Source: Botryllus schlosseri
Taxonomy: Eukaryota
Length of the DNA stretch: 64,000 nt
NCBI GenBank assembly: GCA_051294905.1
Contig: CM119382.1
Location: 10,540,001-10,604,000 of the forward strand
Direction: 5' to 3'
Position 1 is the stretch's first letter. Every line of letters begins with the position of its first letter. Shown in pieces: positions 2,667 through 25,227 of this stretch. A program made the position numbers and the translations under genes. The notes below the pieces were generated by a model, which saw only the letters and a list, made by a program, of their open reading frames with translations, was not told the origin of the DNA and did not search any database.

Positions 2667-3198
2667 AGTAGTTAGGTAAATGGGCGATTTGCCCGCATGC
2701 ACCCTATTTACTTAAACAAACCAAGATTATCATTATAATAAACAGTGTAAGAATTAGCTCATTCTCAGTTTTGCAGCAATACTCGAAGGGGAATTCCCTT
2801 CTGGCTGTGCGGCAATTAAAAAAGGGGGCTTGACTGAGAGAAAACGAACAAAGAATCTGGATTGACCTTTGTACTCAGACTGGAGTACTTCTACTTGTAC
2901 TTTTCCACTCCTGATTCTACCTCACCTCTGGACACGAGACTTGTATATTTGATATATATTATATTTTCCCGCGAATAACAATGGATTGACATTTAATTTC
3001 AATGGTGTGCACGCCGACGAATCGGTATAGTTCTCCTGTCTTGACGTGTCGTTCCGCGGTGGGTTGATTAATCCAATTGCGTGTAAACACGATGGGATTT
3101 GGAAATATTTGTCCGTCAAACATGACGTCAGTATAGTATTTGTTCCTCCGGATCCGTATGTGAGATCCCGGCTCGTGTTTTAGGTGGATTGTCAACGC
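2667..3198. repeat. Polinton left TIR (532 bp)
   Basis: Reverse complement of 24690-25221; four mismatches seen (2733, 2924, 3172, 3192). Confidence 0.95.
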
Positions 3199-5117: not shown

Positions 5118-5508
5118 CGAATATATCTCTCCGTCTACGTTTCTTGTTTGACGTAGTACCTCCCCGCGCACCCTTTTTAAGCTTTTTCGTGGCTTTTCGT
5201 TTACGACCCCCGATCGCGGTATCGAGAAGCTGTAGACCTCCTTCTTTACTCCGTGATATAGCGGATTGCTTGAACGAGCGCCCGGCCACCAAATCTTTTG
5301 CGATATTCGACCCGGTACGGAGGATTTGTTTCCCCAGTATCTTGGAGCCTTTTGATACTAGAGGTAAGACCGCCCGGCCTATGGTTCGAAAAATCGACGC
5401 GAGTCCGCTACCGCTTTGCCTGGACCCCCGGTAAAACCCGTAATTCCCAGCTCCGGTCTGATAGTGGTGCAATACGGCTTCTCGGTCACAGCAATAGTGC
5501 ACTTTCAT
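5110..5508 (-). CDS. Basic core protein with putative protease sites
   Basis: YQTGAG and RQSGSGLASIFRTIGRAVLPL (glycine motif followed by an amphipathic helix); K/R-rich tail. Confidence 0.75.
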   Translation of the reverse strand: MKVHYCCDREAVLHHYQTGAGNYGFYRGSRQSGSGLASIFRTIGRAVLPLVSKGSKILGKQILRTGSNIAKDLVAGRSFKQSAISRSKEGGLQLLDTAIGGRKRKATKKLKKGARGGTTSNKKRRRRDIFDG

Positions 5509-5870
5509 AACGACACCCTGAGATGTATCGTGAGGTCCAAACCCGAGATGTCCAATAATTCACCATACTCGTCCCTTATATAGATGTAGAAATACTCGAA
5601 ACGGTCGAGTCTGACTTTGGCGTAGTATCGATTTTGAAATATATGGTTTTGTCGCTCCCCCTCGTGTAGCGCAACGACTCTTAGCAACGGGACCAAAGCG
5701 TCACCCACCGGCGTCGACTCGATGTCATTACAGTAGATAAAGGCGTAGAGGCTTTCGCCCGACTCACGAACAAAGTTTATCTCCATAAGAGCAATCTCAA
5801 GACCTTTACAATCCATTCCGTGGGGTAGGGTAAATACGGGCCCGTCACCGGTCAGTGTTTGGAACGTCAT
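5505..5870 (-). CDS. Minor capsid (penton) paralog 3, minimal 121 aa
   Basis: EIALMEINF, FIYCNDIESTPVGDALVPLLRVV and IYIRDEYG match penton strands. Confidence 0.75.
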   Translation of the reverse strand: MTFQTLTGDGPVFTLPHGMDCKGLEIALMEINFVRESGESLYAFIYCNDIESTPVGDALVPLLRVVALHEGERQNHIFQNRYYAKVRLDRFEYFYIYIRDEYGELLDISGLDLTIHLRVSL

Positions 5871-6624
5871 CTCGTAAGTGAAGGGTCAATTCAATGTCAC
5901 CGCATTTAAGTTCTTTTCCAAGAGAATCTCTTATGCTGATGCGTACGCTACGGAAGCTGTTGGCATCGGCGGGTAGGTAAAACGGTTTCCTGAATGATAC
6001 GTGCTGTCGTTTCATCTCCGGTACCGTAACGGGGATGATTCGTAAAAGTCTGGACATATAATCACCTACCGGGAGATGGCGCACGCAATCGCAATATATA
6101 AATAAATACTGAGATTTTACTATCGACGGGATATACCACGCATCGAATTCAATGTGCTCAACCTCGCGTAATGAGATCGGGACCTCTCCCTCCTCCGCGA
6201 TGATGTCGTCAATATCGTATCTCTGATGCTCGTGTATGAGACGGTAGTTACCGAAATTCGCGTAAGGCCCGAGCGTAGATGTGAACAGAGAAGAATTCGG
6301 TGGGAATCCCTCGCATACCAATCGATTCTGGCTGGGCGTAAAGTACCAGTGATAACCGTTCACGAGTTCCTCGCTAATTCTTTGCATTAGTTGATCGACA
6401 TTATCGAAATCTCCGGTGGGTAACTCATAGACTTCGGTGACGTCTTTGACAATCGTATTCCAGAAGCTCATGGCCCGGGTGGGTTCTGTGATCACAATTC
6501 TTTCTTGAAAGTCATGATTGAAGCTAATCTCTCGGAGAGCGATCTGTTTACCCTCCGATTCGATTTCAACCGGTAATTCAACCGTGAAATCGGGTCCGCT
6601 TCCGAATATCGTGATATAGCTCAT
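5845..6624 (-). CDS. Minor capsid (penton) paralog 2
   Basis: IALREISF, FIYCDCVRHLPVGDYMSRLLRIIP, PFYLP and ISIRDSLG. Confidence 0.82.
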   Translation of the reverse strand: MSYITIFGSGPDFTVELPVEIESEGKQIALREISFNHDFQERIVITEPTRAMSFWNTIVKDVTEVYELPTGDFDNVDQLMQRISEELVNGYHWYFTPSQNRLVCEGFPPNSSLFTSTLGPYANFGNYRLIHEHQRYDIDDIIAEEGEVPISLREVEHIEFDAWYIPSIVKSQYLFIYCDCVRHLPVGDYMSRLLRIIPVTVPEMKRQHVSFRKPFYLPADANSFRSVRISIRDSLGKELKCGDIELTLHLRDDVPNTDR

Positions 6625-7424
6625 AACGCTTTGACGGCTCCTCGACGGATCAGTAAAGTCACTGTAACGGGAGCTGTTTTAAACGCGACAGGGTTATTGT
6701 TCTTGTCACGAAGATATACTCGTATATTTCGAATATTACTCTTGGCCAGGGGAAAAAAGTAAGGTTTATCATATACACAGTGCTGTATTTTTCCTTCTTG
6801 CGCGGTCACCGGAACGCTTCGAAGGAGAGGTACTAGCTCGCTCCCGAATACACGAGGTCTGATCAGATCGGTGTATATATAAACGGTGTCTACATCTTTC
6901 ACGATGGTTTTCGGTCTGATTAAGAACTCTATTGGTTTTTGTTTCTTCAAAACATGATGTTCCACTGTAAAATAACGCGGAAACGTGTCCTCGATGCTGG
7001 TGAGACGCGGACCCGCACCACTGATTTTTTTGACCCGTATCAAGGGCTCGTCGGCCGGTGGAAACCGACTCTTGAGATACTCAAAGTTCAAGCCGAACAC
7101 GCCACCGGTATATCGCTTGATTGTAATTTCTTTCTCGTATCGCAAGCGAAACTGTTCCAACATATCTGGGACACTGCGATACTTGCCGGGCGGTATGTAA
7201 TACACGTGACGATGGCCCCTGTCAGAAAATTCGATACCCGCACGCTTGTGGTCTACCGTGAACGTGGGCTGGAAGCTCACTGGGAACATGACCTCCGCAA
7301 GCGATGCCTCATATCTTTCTGTATCATATTTTAACTCGGAGAATAGTTGGGTTACAAAATCGTTCGCGGTGTTAGCCTTAAAAACGCTCATTGAAGAATT
7401 ACTCGGTAAAACCAGAAGAGTCAT
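6621..7424 (-). CDS. Minor capsid (penton) paralog 1
   Basis: Canonical LPSNSS..F..NT..DF start; YIYTDLI..RVFG...VPLLRSVP, PYFFPL and IRVYLRD. Confidence 0.9.
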   Translation of the reverse strand: MTLLVLPSNSSMSVFKANTANDFVTQLFSELKYDTERYEASLAEVMFPVSFQPTFTVDHKRAGIEFSDRGHRHVYYIPPGKYRSVPDMLEQFRLRYEKEITIKRYTGGVFGLNFEYLKSRFPPADEPLIRVKKISGAGPRLTSIEDTFPRYFTVEHHVLKKQKPIEFLIRPKTIVKDVDTVYIYTDLIRPRVFGSELVPLLRSVPVTAQEGKIQHCVYDKPYFFPLAKSNIRNIRVYLRDKNNNPVAFKTAPVTVTLLIRRGAVKAL

Positions 7425-7596
7425 CTTCGTCGGCGGTTTGGAGAGACAGTACCCTAGTTAGCGAGGATATATCCGTCTGGGTTTCGGTGAATAAGTTGTA
7501 CACAGTTACACCCACGATAAAAAACAGTATCGCGAGCTGTAGAACCACCAAAGGTATCCGTAACGTACCCCGCTGCGATAAATCCATGATTACCAC
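7399..7596 (-). CDS. Small single-pass membrane protein (65 aa)
   Basis: Hydrophobic IPLVVLQLAILFFIVGVTVYNLF; fits the gap between integrase and penton. Confidence 0.5.
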   Translation of the reverse strand: MVIMDLSQRGTLRIPLVVLQLAILFFIVGVTVYNLFTETQTDISSLTRVLSLQTADEDDSSGFTE

Positions 7597-7617
7597 GGTC
7601 GAGTTGTCGTGTCTGTT

Positions 7618-8619
7618 TTATACAAAACCGTCAACGTAAGAGTCCATCGATTTTGGATAACCCTCCCAGCGCACTAGATATCTCCGCTTGCGCCCCCTCC
7701 CGATCACTTTCTGTATCGATTCGACGCGATAGACATCGTCTTTTTTATCGATGGCTTGTAATTCGCTTTCGTAGAATGTTCCACTAATTACGTCCCCGTT
7801 ATAATCTCGGATGGTGTACGTAGCGGGGCTTCCCCATTTCCGTGTGTGCACGTAAAATATCTCGCGAGTCCAAGACCCCGCTGTCCCTTTTGCAAACGTG
7901 GCACGTCGGGTGGTAATTCTCACTGGTTGATCGACGGGTAGCTTGGGTGACACCGGAGGTCCGGTTCCGTTGTATAGTCTATCGAACACCAGAGACGCGT
8001 TGCTATTGGTAACCTCTGACGGTCGCATCAAAATCGCGGTGTGATACGTTTGGTTATAGCTCTCTGCGATATCTCCCAGCACGTCGATGTAGCGATGTGT
8101 GCGGTTCTTGACAAAGTATCGATTCAATACATTGCGGGTCGTACGAATTACACGCTCTACGACGCTAGCCTTAGTATCGCTGTTGGTAAAAAAGTGCTTG
8201 ACGTGGTTGTCTCTAAAAAACCTCTGTATAACCGACCCCGTGAATTCTTTCCCGGCATCAGTCTGAACGACGTGTGGTCTCTTATGAGCGAATACCTGGT
8301 TGAAGCCCTCGATCATATCTATCGGACGCTTTCGTTTCGTGGCGTATAAAAACATATATTTCGAAAAACAACAAATTGACACCAACACATAACGATAGCC
8401 ATCATTGCTACTAGAAATATTAGACAAGTCCATGAGGTCACTCTGGATCTGAATAAATGGCCCGCCGACGATCGTCTTCTGTCGTTGAAATTTGCCGGTA
8501 TACGGATAGAACAGGGTGTAGCTATCCTCTTGTTTCAAATCCTTCTTGTCGGGGTGCAAGTATTTACCGCGATAGCTCGCCGGGGCTTTGATATCAAAAT
8601 ATTTATCCTTACTCGTCAT
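7618..8619 (-). CDS. Retroviral-like DDE integrase with C-terminal chromodomain
   Basis: QSDLMD, QTDAGKEF and SVVERVIRT; chromodomain YRVESI..RYLVRWEGY. Confidence 0.95.
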   Translation of the reverse strand: MTSKDKYFDIKAPASYRGKYLHPDKKDLKQEDSYTLFYPYTGKFQRQKTIVGGPFIQIQSDLMDLSNISSSNDGYRYVLVSICCFSKYMFLYATKRKRPIDMIEGFNQVFAHKRPHVVQTDAGKEFTGSVIQRFFRDNHVKHFFTNSDTKASVVERVIRTTRNVLNRYFVKNRTHRYIDVLGDIAESYNQTYHTAILMRPSEVTNSNASLVFDRLYNGTGPPVSPKLPVDQPVRITTRRATFAKGTAGSWTREIFYVHTRKWGSPATYTIRDYNGDVISGTFYESELQAIDKKDDVYRVESIQKVIGRGRKRRYLVRWEGYPKSMDSYVDGFV

Positions 8620-9061
8620 CGTCGTAGGCCGTCCACGATCCGTAGAGCTGGGGCGGCTTCCTGTTAGCTCGACGGCTACGTTTGATGATCTCTTGCAGTG
8701 GCGGTGATCTTTTGGCTATCTTGCTTGTGGTGGGGGTACTTGGAGACGACGGGGCTTTCGGTGTTACTTTCGAGGTGACCCGACCCGGCTTCACCTCGTG
8801 CAGTAATTCACGGAGAGTGGCTATCTGATCGTTCGTGAACCCGTTGGAGGTGTCGGTCATCTTCATCTGAAGAGGCTTGTCGATCTGACCCCGTTGACTT
8901 TTATACTTTGAGATGGCAGAGTTATACATGGACAATTTCTTGTCGGCCGAAACGTCCATAGTCAAAATCGCGCTGATCGATCGGTCCAACTCGGAGTTCA
9001 AATCAGTCGCGTTAGAGGGAGCCAGAGGGTTAGGCGATATGATCACTTTTTTGAAATTCAT
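8609..9061 (-). CDS. Polinton hypothetical 150-aa protein
   Basis: Tightly packed with overlapping stop/start codons; LDRSISAIL..KLSMYNSAI helix; basic S/P-rich tail. Confidence 0.65.
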   Translation of the reverse strand: MNFKKVIISPNPLAPSNATDLNSELDRSISAILTMDVSADKKLSMYNSAISKYKSQRGQIDKPLQMKMTDTSNGFTNDQIATLRELLHEVKPGRVTSKVTPKAPSSPSTPTTSKIAKRSPPLQEIIKRSRRANRKPPQLYGSWTAYDDDE

Positions 9062-9432
9062 TTTTTGCCAAAAACAGATTTCAGCAACGATGCCGCCAAT
9101 GGCAGGATTGATAAGATACCGCTAATAAAACCGCCTCGTTGTGTGTTGGCGTGTAATACACGTCTCTTGGTCTTCAAGCTCAACTTTTTACTTGTCAGCT
9201 TTCGAATTTTGTCTTTATGCGGGTGTAAATTTTGTATATGGCGTTTTGACAGTCGCAGATTGCCGTTCAAAACATTCACACAGACTTCACAAAATGCCTT
9301 CACCAAACCGGAAGAGCTACCCAATAATATATCCTTCCTTACCGCGGGCGACGCCTTGGACAGAAATTTCAAAGTCTCGCCGTGCTTCTTAATATAACAG
9401 TGACGTTTCGGCAGCGATTTGGTCCGAGCCAT
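9058..9432 (-). CDS. Basic core protein with a QRGG-F site and C-terminal amphipathic helix
   Basis: FCEVCVNVLNGN core and QRGGFISGILSILPLAASLL, typical of a conserved Polinton small protein. Confidence 0.8.
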   Translation of the reverse strand: MARTKSLPKRHCYIKKHGETLKFLSKASPAVRKDILLGSSSGLVKAFCEVCVNVLNGNLRLSKRHIQNLHPHKDKIRKLTSKKLSLKTKRRVLHANTQRGGFISGILSILPLAASLLKSVFGKK

Positions 9433-9470
9433 TATGAATATAGTGTCAAAAGTGTCGGTACTTTCGCTAT

Positions 9471-10112
9471 TTATAGTGGCGTGTACAACACGAGTTCATC
9501 CCCAGGAAACACCCCTGTTTTAACACGACTAGAATCGGGTGTGGCTTGCGTCAAATCTATAAAAATGTACCCGTGAGCGTTCTTTGTCGCATCGGCATAC
9601 GCGTCAACTAGAAACTTGGCGTTACCGGGGTACATTTGCTTGCCAAGAACTCGAATCTGAGATCGATCTCTAGGATTACGCATGATAATCAAATACTGGG
9701 TGCTGAGACTGAGGTCCCTCGATCTTTTGGACTGGAAATATAGATTTTGGACCGCGAATATTGTGGTCACCGAGCCGTGATTCGCGTAGACTGTAAAAAA
9801 GGGGGTCACCCTGTCCGAAAATTCCATTTTATCATCAATAATTAATAGAGTAGGACACGGGCGGCTTGTCGCCAACTCATCCAAAATGGAGAGATCCGAG
9901 TAAAACTCAACGCCTTGTAGCTCGTTAAAGGAGTCTTGATAAGCCGTATAGCAATAGATAATTCTTTTAATTCGCCCCTTTGAAAGCTGATCGATATTTT
10001 TTATGACTTTAAATATAAAAGTACTCTTCCCCGAAAACGACGGTCCTGCTAAAAGACACGCCCTCCCTGTCGAGAAATCCATCACCAAGGCTGTTTTGAC
10101 GCGACGAGACAT
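9471..10112 (-). CDS. FtsK/A32-like genome packaging ATPase
   Basis: Walker A GPSFSGKST, Walker B LLIIDD, and AVQNLY. Confidence 0.93.
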   Translation of the reverse strand: MSRRVKTALVMDFSTGRACLLAGPSFSGKSTFIFKVIKNIDQLSKGRIKRIIYCYTAYQDSFNELQGVEFYSDLSILDELATSRPCPTLLIIDDKMEFSDRVTPFFTVYANHGSVTTIFAVQNLYFQSKRSRDLSLSTQYLIIMRNPRDRSQIRVLGKQMYPGNAKFLVDAYADATKNAHGYIFIDLTQATPDSSRVKTGVFPGDELVLYTPL

Positions 10113-10235
10113 GTATTCACAAACACACTTCTATATATATATAACAAGGATAGGTACACGAAAAAATATGGCGATTCAGAGCGTCACGCAAACCGTCCAC
10201 ACAGCGAATCTTACAATGTCCACGACCCCGTCTTT

Positions 10236-11796
10236 TTACACCAGAAGCGAGGTGTCATAATCGACGCGAGAAGACGTGGCATCATCAGGGCTCAGCGGTG
10301 TCATGGCCAAGACTCGAGGTCTACGAGGGGGAGGGTAAGGTGATACCCGCCCGGGTGACTTTTTTGTTACGATTTTAGTCAGATTCGGTCTTGGTAGCAC
10401 TGGCGACTGATGTATGTCTCTGGCACGCTGCGGTGTCGCCACGACAAACGGGGCAGTCAGATTCGGTCTTGGTATCACTGGCGACTGATGATGTATGTCT
10501 CTGGCACGCTGTGGTGTCGCCACGACAAACGGGGCGTCAACCACGGTGGGTGATGTGTCAACGGATTTAGGGGCGCGACGATCTTCTCTATGACCCGATC
10601 GGAGATAACCCTGGTTCATGAAGCGGTATCGGGTGTTGTCGTTTCTTTCGTGAGTCAAGCGCTGATCACGGCTCTGTACGCTGCAGGAGGCACGATCGGT
10701 TGGGTCTGTGAAGCCAACTTGACGACGATTCAAGATACGGGCATCAGTCAGCAGTCGGCTCGTCACATCATCGCCTTCATATGTGAACACAGGTAGAAAC
10801 TGCAGCTCCGTCACACACCGCAACAGGTCGTCTCGAAAGCTCATCCATTCTAGAACACAAAGGATAGTTACACATGTGTCGGGTAATGACTATTACTGCT
10901 TGGTTACCTGGTCTCAAGGTGGTGGCAGTGTGTAGACACTCCTGCAACTCTTTCTTGAAGTGAATCGTTTGCTGATCGGTCAGATTGTCTTCCAGCAGAA
11001 TATCTTTCAGCACAGAGACACGATGCCAGTTGGCTTGGGTGTCGCGGTGAAGTCTATTGAGTGAAAGCTGGCCACAAACATGACTAATGAAATCGCTAGC
11101 TGAGTTATGAGTCATCTGGAAAAACAAAAATAACACACGTATTACAAACTGAAACGCCGCCTTCGAAAACTAGTCACAAGCGACAGGCGTTGATGATAGA
11201 AAAAGCGTTCAATGTGGAATAAAATTTCACAGTGAGCACCAAAAGATATACAATGTATGCCAACAAAATAGTGTCTTCGTTTTAACATGTCTTTGACGTG
11301 CCGCCGAAACACTATAAAATAAAATAATAGTAAGACTCCATACTTGTGTCACAATATACAACCCCACCTGTTTTTAGGAATTCCATGTGACTCGACAGGT
11401 CTTGTAGCTGAGACGGGCGAGGAGGACGCCAGCAGATTCTTGTGTCTATGAATAAACGTGCCTTAGCAACGACAGAGAGCTAATAGCATATTTACACACC
11501 CCCAATCTCCTCCAAGATGTTTCTGAGTCTTCTGACGTCCATGTTCAAAGCCTCTATCTTCAAGACCTCAGCCAAAAGTTCCACCCGGTCTGCCCCGTAT
11601 TCGTGTCGTATGATCAGGCCAAACAGAACCCCAATCTCAAACTTGTCTTTCTGCTCGCATGGAGGTAAATGATCGTACCCAGACATGTACTCCCGCAGCG
11701 GGAAGAATTCTGCATGATCAATGTATTGATCCATCTGAGAATTGCGACAATTATGATTTCAATTTATGATGAATCATAACAGTTTCAACTCACCAT
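10236..11796 (-). CDS. Predicted spliced accessory gene, about 423 aa, unknown function
   Basis: Coding segments 11796-11794, 11734-11500, 11445-11368, 11311-11178, 11115-10908 and 10849-10236 join in frame through GT-AG introns of 59, 54, 56, 62 and 58 nt. Confidence 0.6.
10377..10535. repeat. Two tandem 78/81-bp coding repeats
   Basis: Encode APFVVATPQRARDIH(H)QSPV(I/L)PRPNLT twice. Confidence 0.9.
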
Positions 11797-12057
11797 GATT
11801 CCTTCTATACGCTGATAAAATCTGAAAAGAAAAACTCATTGTATTATACAATCATGAAACACAATACGCTTTTCCCCACCTGCTGTAAGCTATTGGCCTG
11901 TGGAGTTAATGCTATCGTCTGTAAACAACGCGAGAAAACGAGCACTATTGTGAAAGGTTCAAGATGCATAGAATAATTCGAATCAACATGAGAGCATAAT
12001 GCGAAAACAGGTTTAAAAAAAAAGCACAGAATACGGAAAGTGCACATTTGGAAAAAA

Positions 12058-13012
12058 TCATAGTTCCAAGGGTCTCGTATGAATACCGTCTGATTCGACT
12101 ATTCGTTTACAGTAGAAGTGAGACAGGGCCGATCGAAATTGCTCATAGGTAAAAATGGAGGCATTTTTCCGTACAAAACCCGAATTAATATCCCCATGAG
12201 GTTTTTTCTCAAACAACACTTTCCGGTAGATGTCAGCAGTCAGTTTGTTTACCTTTGAGAGCCCTTTACACGAGTACTTATCCTCATTGCAATAATAAGT
12301 CTTTGCGGACAGACCAACGAAAATATTCGATTGTGCCTCAATTTTGAAAAGACCACTGGTCCGTTGATCATATCGATTACGAGCTTTACAACAGGCACGT
12401 TTATCATTGAACGATAGAGGATTGGCCAAAAATTCGCTACGGTGCTCATCACAGGCGATTGCTGGAAAATATTTGTGAAAATTTTCAAAAAATTCTGCTT
12501 GTTTTTCGGGTTGTACAACTTTTAGCAGGCTGTCAGAGGAGATAGCGCCGTACCAGGAATCAGTGTCCGAGTATAATAGTTCAATGGACCGTGGCAGGAG
12601 GTAGGTGGACATATACGAATGGAACCGTAATAAGGCCAATTTCGCATAACCATACACAAAGTACCCAATGTGGTTAGGTTGGTTCCAAACATGTTTTCTC
12701 AATTTCATGGTCACCTCAAAAATATCTGGTGACAACTCAATCATTGATTTAAATCTGGAGTCATTTACCAAGACCATAGCTTTTTGACGGTTAACAATCT
12801 TGACATCAGAATATTTTGTACAATTCGAGATAGTTTTACCTATACAGGAATTTCCAATGTCCTTATAGAACTGCCCTAGTGGCTTCTGGGACGGGTCATC
12901 GTCAGCCCGTCTTCTAGCCTCGGTTATCGTATCTACAAGAGAATTGAAACATTCAATGGGTTCAAACTCGATAGCTTGAAATATCTTAGTAACGATTAAC
13001 CCATTCTCGAGG
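12058..13012 (-). other. Duplicate 3' part of pPolB, cut by the assembly gap
   Basis: Matches 18012-18966. Confidence 0.9.
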
Positions 13013-13112
13013 NNNNNNNNNNNNNNNNNNNNNNNNNNNNNNNNNNNNNNNNNNNNNNNNNNNNNNNNNNNNNNNNNNNNNNNNNNNNNNNNNNNNNNNN
13101 NNNNNNNNNNNN
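13013..13112. other. Assembly gap (100 N)
   Basis: Run of exactly 100 N. Confidence 1.
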
Positions 13113-13571
13113 AACATATCTGGGACACTGCGATACTTGCCGGGCGGTATGTAATACACGTGACGATGGCCCCTGTCAGAAAATTCGATACCCGCACGCT
13201 TGTGGTCTACCGTGAACGTGGGCTGGAAGCTCACTGGGAACATGACCTCCGCAAGCGATGCCTCATATCTTTCTGTATCATATTTTAACTCGGAGAATAG
13301 TTGGGTTACAAAATCGTTCGCGGTGTTAGCCTTAAAAACGCTCATTGAAGAATTACTCGGTAAAACCAGAAGAGTCATCTTCGTCGGCGGTTTGGAGAGA
13401 CAGTACCCTAGTTAGCGAGGATATATCCGTCTGGGTTTCGGTGAATAAGTTGTACACAGTTACACCCACGATAAAAAACAGTATCGCGAGCTGTAGAACC
13501 ACCAAAGGTATCCGTAACGTACCCCGCTGCGATAAATCCATGATTACCACGGTCGAGTTGTCGTGTCTGTT

Positions 13572-14573
13572 TTATACAAAACCGTCAACGTAAGAGTCCA
13601 TCGATTTTGGATAACCCTCCCAGCGCACTAGATATCTCCGCTTGCGCCCCCTCCCGATCACTTTCTGTATCGATTCGACGCGATAGACATCGTCTTTTTT
13701 ATCGATGGCTTGTAATTCGCTTTCGTAGAATGTTCCACTAATTACGTCCCCGTTATAATCTCGGATGGTGTACGTAGCGGGGCTTCCCCATTTCCGTGTG
13801 TGCACGTAAAATATCTCGCGAGTCCAAGACCCCGCTGTCCCTTTTGCAAACGTGGCACGTCGGGTGGTAATTCTCACTGGTTGATCGACGGGTAGCTTGG
13901 GTGACACCGGAGGTCCGGTTCCGTTGTATAGTCTATCGAACACCAGAGACGCGTTGCTATTGGTAACCTCTGACGGTCGCATCAAAATCGCGGTGTGATA
14001 CGTTTGGTTATAGCTCTCTGCGATATCTCCCAGCACGTCGATGTAGCGATGTGTGCGGTTCTTGACAAAGTATCGATTCAATACATTGCGGGTCGTACGA
14101 ATTACACGCTCTACGACGCTAGCCTTAGTATCGCTGTTGGTAAAAAAGTGCTTGACGTGGTTGTCTCTAAAAAACCTCTGTATAACCGACCCCGTGAATT
14201 CTTTCCCGGCATCAGTCTGAACGACGTGTGGTCTCTTATGAGCGAATACCTGGTTGAAGCCCTCGATCATATCTATCGGACGCTTTCGTTTCGTGGCGTA
14301 TAAAAACATATATTTCGAAAAACAACAAATTGACACCAACACATAACGATAGCCATCATTGCTACTAGAAATATTAGACAAGTCCATGAGGTCACTCTGG
14401 ATCTGAATAAATGGCCCGCCGACGATCGTCTTCTGTCGTTGAAATTTGCCGGTATACGGATAGAACAGGGTGTAGCTATCCTCTTGTTTCAAATCCTTCT
14501 TGTCGGGGTGCAAGTATTTACCGCGATAGCTCGCCGGGGCTTTGATATCAAAATATTTATCCTTACTCGTCAT
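13572..14573 (-). CDS. Integrase (second assembled copy)
   Basis: Identical to 7618-8619. Confidence 0.9.
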   Translation of the reverse strand: MTSKDKYFDIKAPASYRGKYLHPDKKDLKQEDSYTLFYPYTGKFQRQKTIVGGPFIQIQSDLMDLSNISSSNDGYRYVLVSICCFSKYMFLYATKRKRPIDMIEGFNQVFAHKRPHVVQTDAGKEFTGSVIQRFFRDNHVKHFFTNSDTKASVVERVIRTTRNVLNRYFVKNRTHRYIDVLGDIAESYNQTYHTAILMRPSEVTNSNASLVFDRLYNGTGPPVSPKLPVDQPVRITTRRATFAKGTAGSWTREIFYVHTRKWGSPATYTIRDYNGDVISGTFYESELQAIDKKDDVYRVESIQKVIGRGRKRRYLVRWEGYPKSMDSYVDGFV

Positions 14574-15015
14574 CGTCGTAGGCCGTCCACGATCCGTAGA
14601 GCTGGGGCGGCTTCCTGTTAGCTCGACGGCTACGTTTGATGATCTCTTGCAGTGGCGGTGATCTTTTGGCTATCTTGCTTGTGGTGGGGGTACTTGGAGA
14701 CGACGGGGCTTTCGGTGTTACTTTCGAGGTGACCCGACCCGGCTTCACCTCGTGCAGTAATTCACGGAGAGTGGCTATCTGATCGTTCGTGAACCCGTTG
14801 GAGGTGTCGGTCATCTTCATCTGAAGAGGCTTGTCGATCTGACCCCGTTGACTTTTATACTTTGAGATGGCAGAGTTATACATGGACAATTTCTTGTCGG
14901 CCGAAACGTCCATAGTCAAAATCGCGCTGATCGATCGGTCCAACTCGGAGTTCAAATCAGTCGCGTTAGAGGGAGCCAGAGGGTTAGGCGATATGATCAC
15001 TTTTTTGAAATTCAT
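14563..15015 (-). CDS. 150-aa hypothetical protein (second copy)
   Basis: Identical to 8609-9061. Confidence 0.6.
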   Translation of the reverse strand: MNFKKVIISPNPLAPSNATDLNSELDRSISAILTMDVSADKKLSMYNSAISKYKSQRGQIDKPLQMKMTDTSNGFTNDQIATLRELLHEVKPGRVTSKVTPKAPSSPSTPTTSKIAKRSPPLQEIIKRSRRANRKPPQLYGSWTAYDDDE

Positions 15016-15386
15016 TTTTTGCCAAAAACAGATTTCAGCAACGATGCCGCCAATGGCAGGATTGATAAGATACCGCTAATAAAACCGCCTCGTTGTGTGT
15101 TGGCGTGTAATACACGTCTCTTGGTCTTCAAGCTCAACTTTTTACTTGTCAGCTTTCGAATTTTGTCTTTATGCGGGTGTAAATTTTGTATATGGCGTTT
15201 TGACAGTCGCAGATTGCCGTTCAAAACATTCACACAGACTTCACAAAATGCCTTCACCAAACCGGAAGAGCTACCCAATAATATATCCTTCCTTACCGCG
15301 GGCGACGCCTTGGACAGAAATTTCAAAGTCTCGCCGTGCTTCTTAATATAACAGTGACGTTTCGGCAGCGATTTGGTCCGAGCCAT
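15012..15386 (-). CDS. QRGG-F core protein (second copy)
   Basis: Identical to 9058-9432. Confidence 0.75.
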   Translation of the reverse strand: MARTKSLPKRHCYIKKHGETLKFLSKASPAVRKDILLGSSSGLVKAFCEVCVNVLNGNLRLSKRHIQNLHPHKDKIRKLTSKKLSLKTKRRVLHANTQRGGFISGILSILPLAASLLKSVFGKK

Positions 15387-15424
15387 TATGAATATAGTGT
15401 CAAAAGTGTCGGTACTTTCGCTAT

Positions 15425-16066
15425 TTATAGTGGCGTGTACAACACGAGTTCATCCCCAGGAAACACCCCTGTTTTAACACGACTAGAATCGGGTGTGGCT
15501 TGCGTCAAATCTATAAAAATGTACCCGTGAGCGTTCTTTGTCGCATCGGCATACGCGTCAACTAGAAACTTGGCGTTACCGGGGTACATTTGCTTGCCAA
15601 GAACTCGAATCTGAGATCGATCTCTAGGATTACGCATGATAATCAAATACTGGGTGCTGAGACTGAGGTCCCTCGATCTTTTGGACTGGAAATATAGATT
15701 TTGGACCGCGAATATTGTGGTCACCGAGCCGTGATTCGCGTAGACTGTAAAAAAGGGGGTCACCCTGTCCGAAAATTCCATTTTATCATCAATAATTAAT
15801 AGAGTAGGACACGGGCGGCTTGTCGCCAACTCATCCAAAATGGAGAGATCCGAGTAAAACTCAACGCCTTGTAGCTCGTTAAAGGAGTCTTGATAAGCCG
15901 TATAGCAATAGATAATTCTTTTAATTCGCCCCTTTGAAAGCTGATCGATATTTTTTATGACTTTAAATATAAAAGTACTCTTCCCCGAAAACGACGGTCC
16001 TGCTAAAAGACACGCCCTCCCTGTCGAGAAATCCATCACCAAGGCTGTTTTGACGCGACGAGACAT
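15425..16066 (-). CDS. Packaging ATPase (second copy)
   Basis: Identical to 9471-10112. Confidence 0.9.
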   Translation of the reverse strand: MSRRVKTALVMDFSTGRACLLAGPSFSGKSTFIFKVIKNIDQLSKGRIKRIIYCYTAYQDSFNELQGVEFYSDLSILDELATSRPCPTLLIIDDKMEFSDRVTPFFTVYANHGSVTTIFAVQNLYFQSKRSRDLSLSTQYLIIMRNPRDRSQIRVLGKQMYPGNAKFLVDAYADATKNAHGYIFIDLTQATPDSSRVKTGVFPGDELVLYTPL

Positions 16067-16189
16067 GTATTCACAAACACACTTCTATATATATATAACA
16101 AGGATAGGTACACGAAAAAATATGGCGATTCAGAGCGTCACGCAAACCGTCCACACAGCGAATCTTACAATGTCCACGACCCCGTCTTT

Positions 16190-17750
16190 TTACACCAGAA
16201 GCGAGGTGTCATAATCGACGCGAGAAGACGTGGCATCATCAGGGCTCAGCGGTGTCATGGCCAAGACTCGAGGTCTACGAGGGGGAGGGTAAGGTGATAC
16301 CCGCCCGGGTGACTTTTTTGTTACGATTTTAGTCAGATTCGGTCTTGGTAGCACTGGCGACTGATGTATGTCTCTGGCACGCTGCGGTGTCGCCACGACA
16401 AACGGGGCAGTCAGATTCGGTCTTGGTATCACTGGCGACTGATGATGTATGTCTCTGGCACGCTGTGGTGTCGCCACGACAAACGGGGCGTCAACCACGG
16501 TGGGTGATGTGTCAACGGATTTAGGGGCGCGACGATCTTCTCTATGACCCGATCGGAGATAACCCTGGTTCATGAAGCGGTATCGGGTGTTGTCGTTTCT
16601 TTCGTGAGTCAAGCGCTGATCACGGCTCTGTACGCTGCAGGAGGCACGATCGGTTGGGTCTGTGAAGCCAACTTGACGACGATTCAAGATACGGGCATCA
16701 GTCAGCAGTCGGCTCGTCACATCATCGCCTTCATATGTGAACACAGGTAGAAACTGCAGCTCCGTCACACACCGCAACAGGTCGTCTCGAAAGCTCATCC
16801 ATTCTAGAACACAAAGGATAGTTACACATGTGTCGGGTAATGACTATTACTGCTTGGTTACCTGGTCTCAAGGTGGTGGCAGTGTGTAGACACTCCTGCA
16901 ACTCTTTCTTGAAGTGAATCGTTTGCTGATCGGTCAGATTGTCTTCCAGCAGAATATCTTTCAGCACAGAGACACGATGCCAGTTGGCTTGGGTGTCGCG
17001 GTGAAGTCTATTGAGTGAAAGCTGGCCACAAACATGACTAATGAAATCGCTAGCTGAGTTATGAGTCATCTGGAAAAACAAAAATAACACACGTATTACA
17101 AACTGAAACGCCGCCTTCGAAAACTAGTCACAAGCGACAGGCGTTGATGATAGAAAAAGCGTTCAATGTGGAATAAAATTTCACAGTGAGCACCAAAAGA
17201 TATACAATGTATGCCAACAAAATAGTGTCTTCGTTTTAACATGTCTTTGACGTGCCGCCGAAACACTATAAAATAAAATAATAGTAAGACTCCATACTTG
17301 TGTCACAATATACAACCCCACCTGTTTTTAGGAATTCCATGTGACTCGACAGGTCTTGTAGCTGAGACGGGCGAGGAGGACGCCAGCAGATTCTTGTGTC
17401 TATGAATAAACGTGCCTTAGCAACGACAGAGAGCTAATAGCATATTTACACACCCCCAATCTCCTCCAAGATGTTTCTGAGTCTTCTGACGTCCATGTTC
17501 AAAGCCTCTATCTTCAAGACCTCAGCCAAAAGTTCCACCCGGTCTGCCCCGTATTCGTGTCGTATGATCAGGCCAAACAGAACCCCAATCTCAAACTTGT
17601 CTTTCTGCTCGCATGGAGGTAAATGATCGTACCCAGACATGTACTCCCGCAGCGGGAAGAATTCTGCATGATCAATGTATTGATCCATCTGAGAATTGCG
17701 ACAATTATGATTTCAATTTATGATGAATCATAACAGTTTCAACTCACCAT
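16190..17750 (-). CDS. Spliced accessory gene (second copy)
   Basis: Identical to 10236-11796. Confidence 0.55.
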
Positions 17751-18011
17751 GATTCCTTCTATACGCTGATAAAATCTGAAAAGAAAAACTCATTGTATTA
17801 TACAATCATGAAACACAATACGCTTTTCCCCACCTGCTGTAAGCTATTGGCCTGTGGAGTTAATGCTATCGTCTGTAAACAACGCGAGAAAACGAGCACT
17901 ATTGTGAAAGGTTCAAGATGCATAGAATAATTCGAATCAACATGAGAGCATAATGCGAAAACAGGTTTAAAAAAAAAGCACAGAATACGGAAAGTGCACA
18001 TTTGGAAAAAA

Positions 18012-21000
18012 TCATAGTTCCAAGGGTCTCGTATGAATACCGTCTGATTCGACTATTCGTTTACAGTAGAAGTGAGACAGGGCCGATCGAAATTGCTCAT
18101 AGGTAAAAATGGAGGCATTTTTCCGTACAAAACCCGAATTAATATCCCCATGAGGTTTTTTCTCAAACAACACTTTCCGGTAGATGTCAGCAGTCAGTTT
18201 GTTTACCTTTGAGAGCCCTTTACACGAGTACTTATCCTCATTGCAATAATAAGTCTTTGCGGACAGACCAACGAAAATATTCGATTGTGCCTCAATTTTG
18301 AAAAGACCACTGGTCCGTTGATCATATCGATTACGAGCTTTACAACAGGCACGTTTATCATTGAACGATAGAGGATTGGCCAAAAATTCGCTACGGTGCT
18401 CATCACAGGCGATTGCTGGAAAATATTTGTGAAAATTTTCAAAAAATTCTGCTTGTTTTTCGGGTTGTACAACTTTTAGCAGGCTGTCAGAGGAGATAGC
18501 GCCGTACCAGGAATCAGTGTCCGAGTATAATAGTTCAATGGACCGTGGCAGGAGGTAGGTGGACATATACGAATGGAACCGTAATAAGGCCAATTTCGCA
18601 TAACCATACACAAAGTACCCAATGTGGTTAGGTTGGTTCCAAACATGTTTTCTCAATTTCATGGTCACCTCAAAAATATCTGGTGACAACTCAATCATTG
18701 ATTTAAATCTGGAGTCATTTACCAAGACCATAGCTTTTTGACGGTTAACAATCTTGACATCAGAATATTTTGTACAATTCGAGATAGTTTTACCTATACA
18801 GGAATTTCCAATGTCCTTATAGAACTGCCCTAGTGGCTTCTGGGACGGGTCATCGTCAGCCCGTCTTCTAGCCTCGGTTATCGTATCTACAAGAGAATTG
18901 AAACATTCAATGGGTTCAAACTCGATAGCTTGAAATATCTTAGTAACGATTAACCCATTCTCGAGGTACCACTTCAATAGTGGTGTTATTAACAATGTTT
19001 TTGTGGCCTGCAGAGTAGCAATCAAGAATTTCCGTGGCCGTTTCAAAAAACCATGTTGTTCAGCAAATGCTTTCATGTACGGGCCTATATCATCACGACT
19101 TACGTAAGCATGTTTGAACAGGGGACAGAACTCACTAAAATGCTCCTTGAGGTGACTAGGCACATGAATATCGACCTCAACGGCCCCAAAAAATTGATCT
19201 TTTGACACCAACTCTAAGAGTTTCGAACTTGAAAGGACCCGACATTTCACCATTTTACTGGATTCGAGCGTTTGAATAAAGGCAGCTATATCACTTCGTT
19301 GGCGCATAATGACCCATTGACATTCTGTGATGTACTCCAATTTATACCCCACTTTTTGAATATACTGGATTTTACGCTGCGTCGCGGCCCAGCGGGCTTG
19401 GCGATCCGGGCTGGCTCCCAACTCGCAGCCGTGACCATGGTGAAAACATCCAAACAGCTCAAGTGCAACAGGCCCTTGTGGAGTCCTATAATACCCATCA
19501 ATACAAATCTGGAGCAGGCCGATACGATGCTCAGGACCATTGAATTGATGTTGGATTTTGACCCCCCGACAGTGCGCAATGTAGCTTAGCCATTGGTGAG
19601 CCATTTTTCCATAGAGCGGGGCCGTTTTTGTCCTGGAGAATAGAGTAAAATCTTCATTAGGTGACCACAGACAAGGATAGCCCCCCGGTAATCGTGAACG
19701 GAGAGTATCCAAATAAAGACAATTCGAATCCAGACCTAGCACCTGTTCTACAGGTAGAGCGCTATCGCCATAGATTTGGGGTTTGATTTTTGTGACTTTA
19801 GCCTCTGCATATCGCAATGAAACAACAGAAAGCCCGCCACGTAGATTTTCACGTATCAAGGTGTGTATATGGCTATACTTTTGATTCAACAAGGTGAATA
19901 CAGGTGGTATGCTATTAAACACCAACCTTGAGGCCAGAGAGGGCAAAGATATACCATGTTTAGCCATGTCAATTGAGTAACGAGCAAAGAGTTGCTTGTG
20001 CTTTGTGAGGGCCTCCAGTAACGGCCCGACATCTAAACTGACATAGAAAGATAGATAGTCACGAAAAGTAGTCATTTTATGTTCCGCCCACTTTGATTGA
20101 CACCAAAGATATTGCTCATCTGTTATATTAGACCGTTTCAGCTTGTTATAAAAATGTATGTGGTCTGGGAGGGATTTTTCATCCAATACTGATAAATCAG
20201 TGAAATAGTTATATGGAAAAAAAGCCTTCGTTGAAGCACAGTTATGACAACGTATGTATGCGTCATAACTTGTGCCGGCGCCAAGATACAAGGTCACATC
20301 CAAAAATCGGAACCTACTAGTCGACAAAGACATATATGACGTACCCCTCTTAACAATACTGATAGGGTCTGATAAGTACTCCACCAGATACGGGATAATC
20401 AGAGGTATATCATAACGAGACCCATTGAAAGAGAATACAGGTAATTGACTCAAATAATTCAAAAAACGCTGTTTCAATAAGGTCGCTGGGCTCATACGTT
20501 TGACATCCGGTTCAGTGGTATGCATTTCTTCAGCAATACAATCTAATCGTTCCAACACATCATGAAATTGTTGACATAATGCCTCAAAACACTCACTTTG
20601 GATCAATTCAAAACGTGACATCATCCTAGCAACCAGCGCTCCAGGGTCGCCATCACTAATTAGTACTTCTGGGGTCTCGTACCCCGGGAAATTACATGCG
20701 AAGGCCACCGCGGCCGGTATATGACAGTCCACATAGTGCACATTAGTAGTATCGTTTGGAGTCGAGCCTTTTTGTAATATACTTTCATAGTCAAAAACCA
20801 AGTTATATGGATAGAAACGAGATGGTTTGGGCACGATTATCCCCAATTCGTCCAACGCTTCAAATATAGTAGGCTCAGGCTTGAACATACCTCCCCGATA
20901 GTGATTAGGAATGTCTTTAAAACAATTATGACGATCGAGATAATATTTTGAGCTGAACAGGCGATGACAAGTCTCACAGCTATAATTCTTGCAATATGAG

Positions 21001-21887
21001 TTCACGTTTTTAATATAACATGAATGTCTTCCTTCTAAATGTACGTTAATTTTCAACCCCTCCCGAGCACCGTGTCGTAGTATATAACCGACTCCTTCTT
21101 TCAATGTGTAGACACAGATGGATACTTTAAGACATGACTCGACTTTATGTAAATCGGCCATGCATACCCCAGAATCAGGGTCCCCATATAAAGCGGAATA
21201 TTGTGCCACCAGAGAGAGCGTTTTAGACTGCAAGTCGCCATCACTATAGTCAACACCACAAAGCATAACAGCGACACAGCGGAATATACAGTAATTATCG
21301 TCATATGGTACACCACGTCGATTTTTCATTAAAGTTAAAATACTACGCGAATTCACAATAGACTTTGGTATTTCGATTGTACTACACCCAATTAATCTGA
21401 AGTCAGATTTGTACACATAAAAGGTCACGTTTGTGACTGCCAAGACAACAAATTTAGTATCGTCTCTTTGAAAGCGAGCACTCTCGAAGCCAGCGGCCAG
21501 GTCTATATCGTCTACAAATTGGTCAAAGTCACTGCGATTGGCAATCATTTTAGGTGTATCCAACATAACACCCGCGTTCTCGGACGCATGATAGTATCTC
21601 AATTCGCTTGTCTCAACATTATCAAGTATGTGGGCAAAAGCGTAATTGATTCGAAAACCATACTGTTGTGAGACGAAGATGTCCTGTAGATCGTTGATGA
21701 CGTCACTTGGGTTGCGGCCGAGTATACGGAAATTGTGTAGACTGCGTATACTGTGTGGTGCGAGAGTGGAGCTGCGAATGGAGTGCCAGTTTTCTTCCAC
21801 GATCTCGATCAGATTTTCAGGTATACCCAAGCTGCTTGGTTGTGCGAAATCAGACACAATTCTAACAAGGTGTCGTCGCCTAGACAT
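18012..21887 (-). CDS. Protein-primed family B DNA polymerase (pPolB)
   Basis: Exonuclease motifs FDYES, FNGSRYD and FPYNYF; polymerase motifs LDSNCLY, KDIGNSCIGK and YSDTDS; first likely Met MSRRR at 21887, preceded by a splice acceptor. Confidence 0.96.
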   Translation of the reverse strand: MSRRRHLVRIVSDFAQPSSLGIPENLIEIVEENWHSIRSSTLAPHSIRSLHNFRILGRNPSDVINDLQDIFVSQQYGFRINYAFAHILDNVETSELRYYHASENAGVMLDTPKMIANRSDFDQFVDDIDLAAGFESARFQRDDTKFVVLAVTNVTFYVYKSDFRLIGCSTIEIPKSIVNSRSILTLMKNRRGVPYDDNYCIFRCVAVMLCGVDYSDGDLQSKTLSLVAQYSALYGDPDSGVCMADLHKVESCLKVSICVYTLKEGVGYILRHGAREGLKINVHLEGRHSCYIKNVNSYCKNYSCETCHRLFSSKYYLDRHNCFKDIPNHYRGGMFKPEPTIFEALDELGIIVPKPSRFYPYNLVFDYESILQKGSTPNDTTNVHYVDCHIPAAVAFACNFPGYETPEVLISDGDPGALVARMMSRFELIQSECFEALCQQFHDVLERLDCIAEEMHTTEPDVKRMSPATLLKQRFLNYLSQLPVFSFNGSRYDIPLIIPYLVEYLSDPISIVKRGTSYMSLSTSRFRFLDVTLYLGAGTSYDAYIRCHNCASTKAFFPYNYFTDLSVLDEKSLPDHIHFYNKLKRSNITDEQYLWCQSKWAEHKMTTFRDYLSFYVSLDVGPLLEALTKHKQLFARYSIDMAKHGISLPSLASRLVFNSIPPVFTLLNQKYSHIHTLIRENLRGGLSVVSLRYAEAKVTKIKPQIYGDSALPVEQVLGLDSNCLYLDTLRSRLPGGYPCLWSPNEDFTLFSRTKTAPLYGKMAHQWLSYIAHCRGVKIQHQFNGPEHRIGLLQICIDGYYRTPQGPVALELFGCFHHGHGCELGASPDRQARWAATQRKIQYIQKVGYKLEYITECQWVIMRQRSDIAAFIQTLESSKMVKCRVLSSSKLLELVSKDQFFGAVEVDIHVPSHLKEHFSEFCPLFKHAYVSRDDIGPYMKAFAEQHGFLKRPRKFLIATLQATKTLLITPLLKWYLENGLIVTKIFQAIEFEPIECFNSLVDTITEARRRADDDPSQKPLGQFYKDIGNSCIGKTISNCTKYSDVKIVNRQKAMVLVNDSRFKSMIELSPDIFEVTMKLRKHVWNQPNHIGYFVYGYAKLALLRFHSYMSTYLLPRSIELLYSDTDSWYGAISSDSLLKVVQPEKQAEFFENFHKYFPAIACDEHRSEFLANPLSFNDKRACCKARNRYDQRTSGLFKIEAQSNIFVGLSAKTYYCNEDKYSCKGLSKVNKLTADIYRKVLFEKKPHGDINSGFVRKNASIFTYEQFRSALSHFYCKRIVESDGIHTRPLEL

Positions 21888-21997
21888 TCTGGAAACAAAA
21901 AACACAGAATCAATAACAGGTAGCACAAAACACACATTAATACATATGATATTACAGCATAAGCATGCAATAAAAACATGATAGCACACCAAAACAG

Positions 21998-22483
21998 TTA
22001 CGTATTTGTATAAAATTTCATGGTAGCTCTGGCAGCTGACATCTCTTTGAGAAAGGCAACTTTTGCACGCATGATGCGTTCCAAGGGTAATTGCATACGC
22101 AAATCCTGTCCATTCGACTGAGAGAGTATTTGCGAAATTTCTTGTTCTATCCGGTTATAATCTTGAGTGAATGTTTCATGAGAAGGAAAACTAGATCTCG
22201 AAAGTATATCATCCACTTCCCCCAGAATAGTGAACATCGCTTCCGATGGGGCGATTGAGATAGCCTCAACAATGGTCGCCTTGAGGTGCTCCATCATTCG
22301 TCTACTATATTTCCCAAACCTCTCACCCCCAGGTCTACGTCTGGATGGGAATGCAGGAGGTTGGGCTGGATTTTCTACATTTTCTGGAATATCATTTGCA
22401 GGGCTAATCGCATCGAGCAGGTCTACCGGATAACCACCTTCCATCAATTCTGGTATCCCGTTATCAGCCATAGTCATGAGCAA
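21998..22483 (-). CDS. Hypothetical 161-aa protein, possibly the 5' exon of pPolB
   Basis: Open ORF whose stop lies inside a GTAACT donor-like site. Confidence 0.6.
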   Translation of the reverse strand: MLMTMADNGIPELMEGGYPVDLLDAISPANDIPENVENPAQPPAFPSRRRPGGERFGKYSRRMMEHLKATIVEAISIAPSEAMFTILGEVDDILSRSSFPSHETFTQDYNRIEQEISQILSQSNGQDLRMQLPLERIMRAKVAFLKEMSAARATMKFYTNT

Positions 22484-22499
22484 AGATTTGTGATTATAA

Positions 22500-22850
22500 G
22501 CTCAATTTACACTTACTTATAGACACTGTAGCCACATGACAAAGCAGAAGAAGGTACGTAACACAGTTTAACAGTGCCAGCAAAACGCGGGAAGGCATTT
22601 TATGACCCTCCACTCGCCTTTTCCCCCAACCATTTGAATATACATACAAGCCTCTTTTTTCTCTTGTGCCATACTCGCATACCCAATTTACACTTACTTA
22701 TAGACACTGTGAGCCACATGACAATTGGAAGAAGGTACTTAACACAGTTAAATAGAGCCGGCAAAACTCGGCAAGAAATTTTATGACAATCTACTCGGCC
22801 TTTTTCCCCCAACCATTTGAATATAAATACAAGACTCTTTTTCTCTAGTG
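22500..22850. repeat. Two imperfect tandem repeats of about 180 bp in the divergent intergenic region
   Basis: CAATTTACACTTACTTATAGACACTGT...CCCCCAACCATTTGAATATA occurs twice (from about 22503 and 22684). Confidence 0.9.
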
Positions 22851-22875
22851 ACATACTTACAGGCATAATTACATC

Positions 22876-24689: not shown

Positions 24690-25221
24690 GCGTTGGCAAT
24701 CCACCTAAAACACGAACCGGGATCTCACATACGGATCCGGAGGAACAAATACTATACTGACGTCATGTTTGACGGACAAATATTTCCAAATCCCATCGTG
24801 TTTACACGCAATTGGATTAATCAACCCACCGCGGAACGACACGTCAAGACAGGAGAACTATACCGATTCGTCGGCGTGCACACCATTGAAATTAAATGTC
24901 AATCCATTGTTATTCGCGGGAAAATATAATATATATCAAATATACAAGTCTCGTGTCCAGAGGCGAGGTAGAATCAGGAGTGGAAAAGTACAAGTAGAAG
25001 TACTCCAGTCTGAGTACAAAGGTCAATCCAGATTCTTTGTTCGTTTTCTCTCAGTCAAGCCCCCTTTTTTAATTGCCGCACAGCCAGAAGGGAATTCCCC
25101 TTCGAGTATTGCTGCAAAACTGAGAATGAGCTAATTCTTACACTGTTTATTATATTGATAATCTTGGTTTGTTTAAGTAAATAGGGTGCATGCGGGCAAA
25201 TCGCCCATTTACCTAACTACT
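24690..25221. repeat. Polinton right TIR (532 bp)
   Basis: Reverse complement of 2667-3198. Confidence 0.95.
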
Positions 25222-25227
25222 AAGATG

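Follow-up and report, generated by a model that had tools for sequence, protein, structure and literature searches.

The locus described here raises the question of how a run of short open reading frames (ORFs) on the minus strand of a Polinton, lying between its putative polymerase and its putative ATPase, is turned into protein. An earlier note on the window (the whole 64,000-nt stretch of Botryllus schlosseri DNA analyzed here, in whose coordinates all positions are given) had claimed that six introns conceal a single gene and that the small ORFs splice into one protein of approximately 423 residues. Our analysis of RNA reads, related copies and sister elements leads to a different answer. 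We consider it probable that the locus holds two separate intron-containing genes, designated A and B, and that each of them receives a spliced leader; as in sea-squirt operons, both mRNAs likely derive from a single shared transcript.

The element that carries these genes was examined at its ends, in its core ORFs and in its copies. The Polinton arms are 532-nt terminal inverted repeats with 99% complementarity; the ends read (AGT)2/(ACT)2, and a 6-bp target duplication flanks both sides. The integrase is recognized by Pfam rve with an E of 5e-8, which passes the curated threshold. The 1291-aa ORF, which we take to be a PolB-like polymerase from motifs identified by eye, gave zero matches in Pfam, PHROGs, PDB sequences and phage records, and the 213-aa putative ATPase ORF contains a Walker A motif and has Pfam P-loop matches below cut-off only. 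Positions 7159-13012 are identical to 13113-18966 (a 5,854-nt block at an offset of +5954) across a 100-N gap at 13013-13112. Because two further 100%-identical copies in the genome each give a single match, the repeat over 7159-18966 is likely an assembly duplication or overlap. The duplicated block makes the element look 22.5 kb long instead of approximately 16.6 kb. About 20 near-full matches to the A-B region were found genome-wide at 94-100% identity, and the ATPase candidates scored (150 of 230) indicate many more Polintons, of other families, in the same genome.

Since the region occurs twice in the window, RNA reads were mapped on the second copy (+5954). The runs comprised the reads of X24, the 3'-biased single-cell reads of X22 and X23, and the contigs of X1 and X2, whose RNA origin is only presumed; X21, which carries another organism label, placed zero reads on the locus. 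Splice junctions were listed at a 1% threshold with at least three reads required. All six GT..AG stretches proposed by the earlier note exist with the positions and lengths that it gave, and five of them produced junctions in reads or contigs. The junction of intron 1 was recovered in 14 X24 reads and an X2 contig, and that of intron 2 in 9 X24 reads (one letter at the end of the exon being variant), in an X1 contig with an exact 59-nt skip and in an X2 contig. Intron 3 is spanned by 25 X24, 4 X22 and 3 X23 reads; intron 4 by 20 X24, 21 X22 and 1 X23 reads together with X1 and X2 contigs; and intron 6 by 62 X24 reads and an X2 contig. Introns 1, 2, 3, 4 and 6 are real and are removed in cis. 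These RNA junctions confirm that the small ORFs hide intron-containing coding sequence that ORF calling had missed. The X24 reads differ from the window copy at fixed sites (34 of 34 reads at 17203, for example), and they therefore come from sibling copies or other individuals and report on the family rather than on this exact insertion. Coordinates of all features are given in Table 1.

Table 1 Positions of the A-B unit and of the surrounding Polinton features within the window
Feature	Position	Strand	Remark
Left terminal inverted repeat	2667..3198	.	AGTAGT end; 6-bp target duplication 2661-2666
Gene B poly(A) site	10094..10098	-	15-19 nt inside ATPase ORF; poly(T) loose ends
Gene B coding exon 2 to stop	10236..10849	-	27-aa repeat (81-nt spacing) in Pro/Arg-rich tail
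Intron 6	10850..10907	-	58 nt, phase 1, gene B
Gene B coding exon 1	10908..11115	-	54-55% identical in sister family
Gene A 3' UTR and pyrimidine tract	11116..11141	-	26 nt; ends in AG receiving gene B leader
Gene A last coding exon	11142..11311	-	Includes 11 codons formerly taken for intron; reads run through
Intron 4	11312..11367	-	56 nt, phase 1
Gene A coding exon 4	11368..11445	-	78 nt; junctions on both sides; 72% identical in sister family
Intron 3	11446..11499	-	54 nt, phase 1
Gene A coding exon 3	11500..11734	-	Open in all copies; 52% identical in sister family
Intron 2	11735..11793	-	59 nt
Gene A exon 2, 5' UTR	11794..11821	-	28 nt; terminal ATG not conserved
Intron 1	11822..11879	-	58 nt, GT-AG, in gene A 5' UTR
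Gene A exon 1, 5' UTR	11880..11918	-	39 nt; copies differ in length, not in steps of 3
Gene A leader acceptor AG	11919..11920	-	14 X24 leader reads; AG kept in 20/20 loci
Second identical A-B unit	16048..17874	-	+5954; directly downstream of full polymerase ORF
Polymerase B-like ORF, 1291 aa	18012..21887	-	Stop 139 nt upstream of gene A leader acceptor
Right terminal inverted repeat	24690..25221	.	6-bp target duplication 25222-25227

The sixth stretch, the supposed intron 5 (11177-11116), behaves differently from the other five. No cis junction over it was listed at the 1% threshold (at least three reads) in the RNA runs mapped. X24 depth across the stretch is approximately 19-21, compared with approximately 1 within the real intron 4, and X1 and X2 contigs traverse it unspliced. 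All 20 X24 reads that cover the donor are likewise unspliced, 12 of them with the GT allele of the window and 8 with GC; X22 and X23 have almost no reads downstream of this stretch, hence they carry little weight on its junction. Among the genomic copies, 4 of 20 loci have a GT donor, all representing 1 of 16 distinct sequences, and the other 16 loci have GC. The length of the stretch ranges from 62 to 66 nt among copies, with the variation falling almost wholly in the pyrimidine tract that follows the stop of gene A. The region 11177-11116 is a gene boundary and not an intron: it begins with the last codons and the 3' end of gene A and closes with the acceptor at which gene B takes its leader.

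The acceptor at the end of this boundary receives sequence from elsewhere. At this position (equivalent place 17071) 67 X24 reads exit the genome into a foreign 5' leader, and 14 X24 reads carry the same leader at the 11919 acceptor (equivalent place 17874). The letters beyond the leader are presumably those of a template-switch oligo, which would place the leader at the 5' end of the cDNA. The leader letters are absent from the whole window and have 254 occurrences elsewhere in the genome, 131 matches being followed by GT. They are those of the 'Chordata 1' (tunicate) spliced leader as it appears in Table 1 of PMC3795323, which marks the host as an animal of tunicate type, and trans-splicing is described in a botryllid in the part of PMC3691228 used here. 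Both acceptors (11919 and 11116) are trans-splice sites. The leader was seen in one of six runs, X24, the others being readless (X21), 3'-biased (X22 and X23) or contigs (X1 and X2). The earlier note had taken the 11919 acceptor to imply an exon far upstream; the acceptor is indeed used, but it takes the host spliced leader (14 reads) rather than a distant exon. A viral leader shared among genes in the manner of adenoviruses, and supplied by a distant exon, was also considered and was rejected for both acceptors, the letters being absent from the window and matching the host leader. The genomic leader+GT copies (L063-L087) are dispersed and not tandem. In L077, L078, L080 and L081 the leader continues with a consensus-like donor, making these candidate leader RNA genes, and 14 of the 25 copies share another downstream motif, suggesting a leader-carrying repeat family.

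Comparison with a sister Polinton family addresses the same boundary through conservation. This family has four loci that are 50-52% identical in exon 3 of gene A; the layout is the same in three of them and rearranged in the fourth, and copies L049, L051 and L052 are damaged. In L050, protein A has 159 aa (57% identical) and protein B 258 aa (53% identical over the first 120 residues). Introns 3, 4 and 6 of the sister family occupy the same position and phase, and its intron 1 was seen by eye. The basic tail and stop of gene A are kept (6 of 11 residues identical), as is the AG|ATG of gene B. In the sister family no GT or GC stands where the donor of the supposed intron 5 aligns, and AATAAA precedes the B acceptor. 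Between the families, gene A shows a pS of 0.87 and a pN of 0.27. Two of the checks that the earlier note had proposed, spliced RNA reads and frame conservation in related Polintons, divide in the same manner: junctions exist at five introns and the sister family keeps three of them in place and phase, but none is listed at 11177-11116 and the donor there is missing from the sister family.

These data bear directly on whether cis-splicing of intron 5 yields a 423-aa protein, be it the principal product or a minor isoform of some consequence. The frame of the joined product is open as claimed, with 423 codons from ATG 11796, and on removal of the stretch it remains open in 20 of 20 loci (396-422 aa from ATG 11734); the acceptor is strong, and GC-AG introns are established. 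Against these points stand fewer than three possible X24 cis reads compared with 67 leader reads at the same acceptor, the X1 and X2 contigs that cross unspliced, a GT in 1 of 16 distinct copies only, and a sister family that conserves the tail residues and the stop rather than the donor. The single 423-aa protein was accordingly rejected, and we regard it as scarcely credible in either role; a rare cis product, below a few percent, may be compatible with the present data. The locus is better read as two genes than as one. When tunicate genomes are annotated, a leader site should be the first reading of any acceptor that lacks a good donor, and a long exon fusion only the second.

Translation of gene A begins at ATG 11734 and gives 160 aa in 18 of 20 loci, with a TAA stop at 11144-11142; the remaining two loci (L016 and L018) read past this stop to 171 aa. 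Because only 7 of 20 loci have ATG 11796, exons 1 and 2 are assigned to the 5' UTR. The 26-nt 3' UTR of gene A has no canonical AATAAA in this family. The C-terminal basic tail of the protein is conserved and ends in an arginine run, and the within-family pN/pS is 0.14. An AlphaFold model of exon 3 (78 of the 160 aa) predicts five helices with a pLDDT of 86.8. As a separate observation, the sequence of 9 X24 reads departs from gene A within exon 4, at 17378 (11424 in the first copy), and continues as foreign AT-rich sequence.

Gene B has its ATG directly behind the acceptor and encodes 273 aa. Its 3' end is marked by poly(T) loose ends at equivalent place 16048 in 19 X24 and 4 X22 reads. X24 depth jumps from approximately 19 to approximately 117 at the start of gene B, which is thus about 6-fold deeper than gene A. 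The protein consists of a conserved domain of about 120 aa and a flexible Pro/Arg/Ser-Thr tail, with within-family pN/pS values of 0.19 for residues 1-120 and 0.40 for the tail. Within the tail lie S/T-P-x-R sites, the 27-aa repeat, and an R-x(2-3)-PY motif that the sister family retains; the S/T-P-x-R and R-x(2-3)-PY patterns are putative proline-directed kinase and nuclear-import motifs. Descent of A and B from an ancient common gene, hinted at by a weak tblastn match, was not supported: the profile comparison gave a probability of 0.7% and the B-family profile scores A negative.

Nine places in distant Polinton families were compared, with L062 lying outside the detailed comparison. L054 and L061 carry two tandem B-like genes behind the polymerase, each at an AG|ATG and one of them intronless, and neither has a match to gene A. 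L060 is a near copy of L054, and L053 holds a damaged version of the B-like arrangement; in L055-L057 the ATPase lies directly behind the polymerase. A profile built from three distant sequences scored B at 18.7 bits and the sister-family B at 14.5 bits, the best of 500 shuffles reaching 10.0 bits and A scoring negative. Because distant families carry B-like genes without A and the profile matches, B constitutes a free-standing gene family of these Polintons. Two further features were seen in the distant loci. In L053 and L061 the N-terminal part of the polymerase occurs twice (a 162-aa ORF and the start of the long ORF), each time behind an AG|ATG. L055:7445-7831, in another Polinton family, holds a 128-aa ORF with a putative BIR-like (apoptosis inhibitor) Cys/His pattern.

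A mechanism can be proposed by which the two genes would be expressed together. The host RNA polymerase II would read the polymerase gene, A and B in a single transcript, and the five short introns would be removed in cis. The leader snRNP would attack the two AG acceptors that lack a usable upstream donor, generating capped single-gene mRNAs. The 3' end of A would form at or just before the B acceptor, so that any one molecule would be a source of A or of B but not of both. We infer the single-transcript step from contigs and spacing. One X2 contig runs from 18158 across the polymerase/A boundary and the A acceptor into spliced A, and X1 and X2 contigs cross the A/B boundary, although as contigs they are not proof of single molecules. 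The spacers measure 139 nt from the polymerase stop to the A acceptor and 26 nt from the A stop to the B ATG. Of the features that define a Ciona-type operon, same-strand spacing below 100 nt is found between A and B, and a leader on the downstream gene is found at B (67 X24 reads, one run).

The distribution of 3'-biased reads adds to this picture. X22 and X23 reads pile up at 17105-17268 (peak depths of 44 and 22, respectively) and fall to approximately 1 at the B acceptor; similar piles lie before the proven poly(A) site of B and, weakly, before the A acceptor. Because reads pile up before the B poly(A) site and before both acceptors, the data suggest separate 3' ends for the B, A and polymerase mRNAs. 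No poly(A) tail at the 3' end of A was present among the loose ends listed. The polymerase ORF is likely the first cistron. For the ATPase ORF downstream, there were no X24 or X22 reads over 15400-16021, and a TATA-like run precedes it, which fits a separate late unit. Two other junctions were observed near the polymerase. Six X24 reads join an exon ending at 23270 (minus strand, antisense to a 235-aa plus-strand ORF) to an acceptor before the polymerase ATG (21888-23270); the donor at 23270 is not conserved in the sister family. In four X24 reads a stretch of 2,777 nt within the polymerase ORF (18887-21663, minus strand) is missing, with GT-AG borders and a shift of frame, possibly limiting polymerase output or representing noise.

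Trans-splicing of both genes would also be expected if B, and perhaps A, had its own promoter just upstream and addition of the leader removed an outron, with no true operon. The roughly 6-fold greater depth of B in X24 agrees with such a promoter, as do the distant families, in which A is absent and B-like genes follow the polymerase immediately; the same leader also occurs on single-gene mRNAs in Ciona in the portion of PMC7986045 used here. A promoter for B would, however, have to sit within the coding exons of A or its 54-56-nt introns, with only 26 nt available between the stop and the ATG. The 3'-tag reads of A moreover end at the B acceptor and need transcription across the boundary, an argument taken from the accessible part of PMC1488885. 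We give independent promoters a small chance. Returning to the shared transcript, we lean modestly towards an early programme that is a host-style operon of three genes (polymerase, A and B), resolved by the leader, in which 3'-end formation versus leader addition would set the product ratio. If this three-gene operon is true, the element would be tied to hosts with leader trans-splicing, and Polinton catalogues built on plain ORFs would miss a conserved, intron-bearing early gene family.

The origin of the two genes was approached through homology and structure. The earlier note had offered a captured host gene as one explanation, and this found no backing: the matches of A (26 places) and B (24 places) in this genome coincide with element DNA or the ATPase, and no relative emerged from outside searches. 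Its suggestion to search and fold the spliced protein, carried out on single exons, returned no homolog and no informative fold match. These searches used single exons or the intronless B relative, from which a distant relative could escape. Candidate homologs were confirmed in 0 of 221 cases for the 202-aa ORF, 0 of 198 for A exon 3 against longer proteins and 0 of 32 for the intronless B-like ORF, and 0 of 28 pattern matches were confirmed in viral contigs. A profile of A exon 3 gave one hit among 1.84 billion proteins, a tandem-repeat translation that was judged spurious. For the A and B sequences searched, Pfam and PHROGs gave nothing above cut-off, and the B-family profile reached a best E of 0.084 against PDB sequences. 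The A exon 3 model gave nothing in Foldseek at E<=0.001 in the PDB or the viral library, and in a wide structure search its top match (Z 6.2) was to designed helical bundles and is uninformative; the model of the intronless B-like ORF is poor (pLDDT 54.6).

Capture of a host gene by the Polinton, introns included, would account for the host-like intron sizes (54-59 nt) and processing, and vertebrate Maverick core genes are reported to be intron-free in the part of PMC8097293 considered. It is nevertheless very unlikely, as there is no match outside element copies in the genome and no relative in outside searches, and B-like genes occupy the same position in distant Polinton families. The intronless B-like paralog in those families fits intron gain inside the element. 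A tentative role for A and B is that of small nuclear early proteins acting as regulators of the element, which we consider possible rather than probable.

To our knowledge, Polinton gene expression is largely unstudied. Several known systems nevertheless resemble parts of the present locus, and the comparisons below draw on portions of the cited papers. In Ciona intestinalis, operons mostly lack intercistronic DNA, and in the argument of Satou et al. (2006, PMC1488885) a single molecule may be the source of either the upstream or the downstream mRNA. The A-B unit shares with Ciona operons (PMC1488885, PMC7986045) the same-strand neighbors less than 100 nt apart, the leader at an AG that probably abuts the upstream 3' end and the missing canonical AATAAA in the 26-nt 3' UTR of A. 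It differs in that the unit lies inside a virus-like mobile element, that the A poly(A) site is deduced from a 3'-tag pile-up and that the sister family has AATAAA before the acceptor. The element resembles the vertebrate Polintons/Mavericks of Barreat and Katzourakis (2021, PMC8097293) in its inverted repeats, (AGT)2 ends, 6-bp duplication, rve integrase and compact run of ORFs. Genes of intact elements in the covered part of that set are without introns, whereas here two genes contain introns and have no match in the libraries that were searched.

Other comparisons concern trans-splicing and small accessory genes. In Hydra (bioRxiv 10.1101/2024.03.13.584568) transposable element RNAs likewise use host leader trans-splicing (approximately 30% of TE long reads); the examples are full-length CR1 and Tc1 transcripts, and the parts covered contain no gene-level or operon resolution for Mavericks. 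The adintovirus 'Oncoid' genes (Starrett et al. 2021, PMC8502044) are also small non-core genes near PolB and are proposed regulators of the host cell. As defined in the portion of that paper used here, Oncoids have LxCxE near a CK2 site and paired CxxC and are typically upstream of PolB; A and B, read from their translations, have neither LxCxE nor paired CxxC, lie downstream of PolB and fall outside this definition. Polinton and trans-splicing also occur together in C. elegans eri-6/7 (bioRxiv 10.1101/2024.01.15.575659), where host gene-to-gene trans-splicing proceeds via Polinton-derived repeats rather than by leader addition to Polinton genes. In the literature searched, which had incomplete coverage and excluded supplements, no paper was found on leader trans-splicing or operons of Polinton genes. 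Within the parts consulted, PMC10541103 treats these topics apart from one another, PMC12721341 reports no splice sites and PMC12220804 reports only group I introns.

Leader use by transposon RNAs (Hydra) and spacer-less operons (Ciona) are thus already known from the parts of the work cited. This locus adds five introns proven at the level of reads, leader addition at two acceptors in succession, and conservation of the junction between stop and acceptor. Two conserved genes that annotation by ORFs fragments are thereby shown to carry spliceosomal introns and to receive the host leader by trans-splicing. If the operon is true, a virus-like element would have adopted host-specific RNA processing to obtain several capped mRNAs per transcript. 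Horizontal transfer between animal groups would then be limited in a way that can be tested, and the unit would serve as a small natural substrate on which to ask how tunicate operons without spacers are resolved.

Outside the A-B unit, several further features of the element and its flanks were recorded. The 424-aa and 148-aa ORFs, putatively capsid and cysteine protease, had no significant match in the libraries searched. ORFs of 267, 259 and 121 aa in 5505-7424 are mutually similar (cross-family tblastn, E to approximately 1e-14) and look paralogous. In the late region, ORFs overlap from stop to start and lack acceptors. Outside its ends the Polinton is flanked, at 1641-1940 and 28269-28568, by a direct repeat of 100% identity over at least 300 nt, which perhaps represents the ends of another element that hosts the Polinton insertion.
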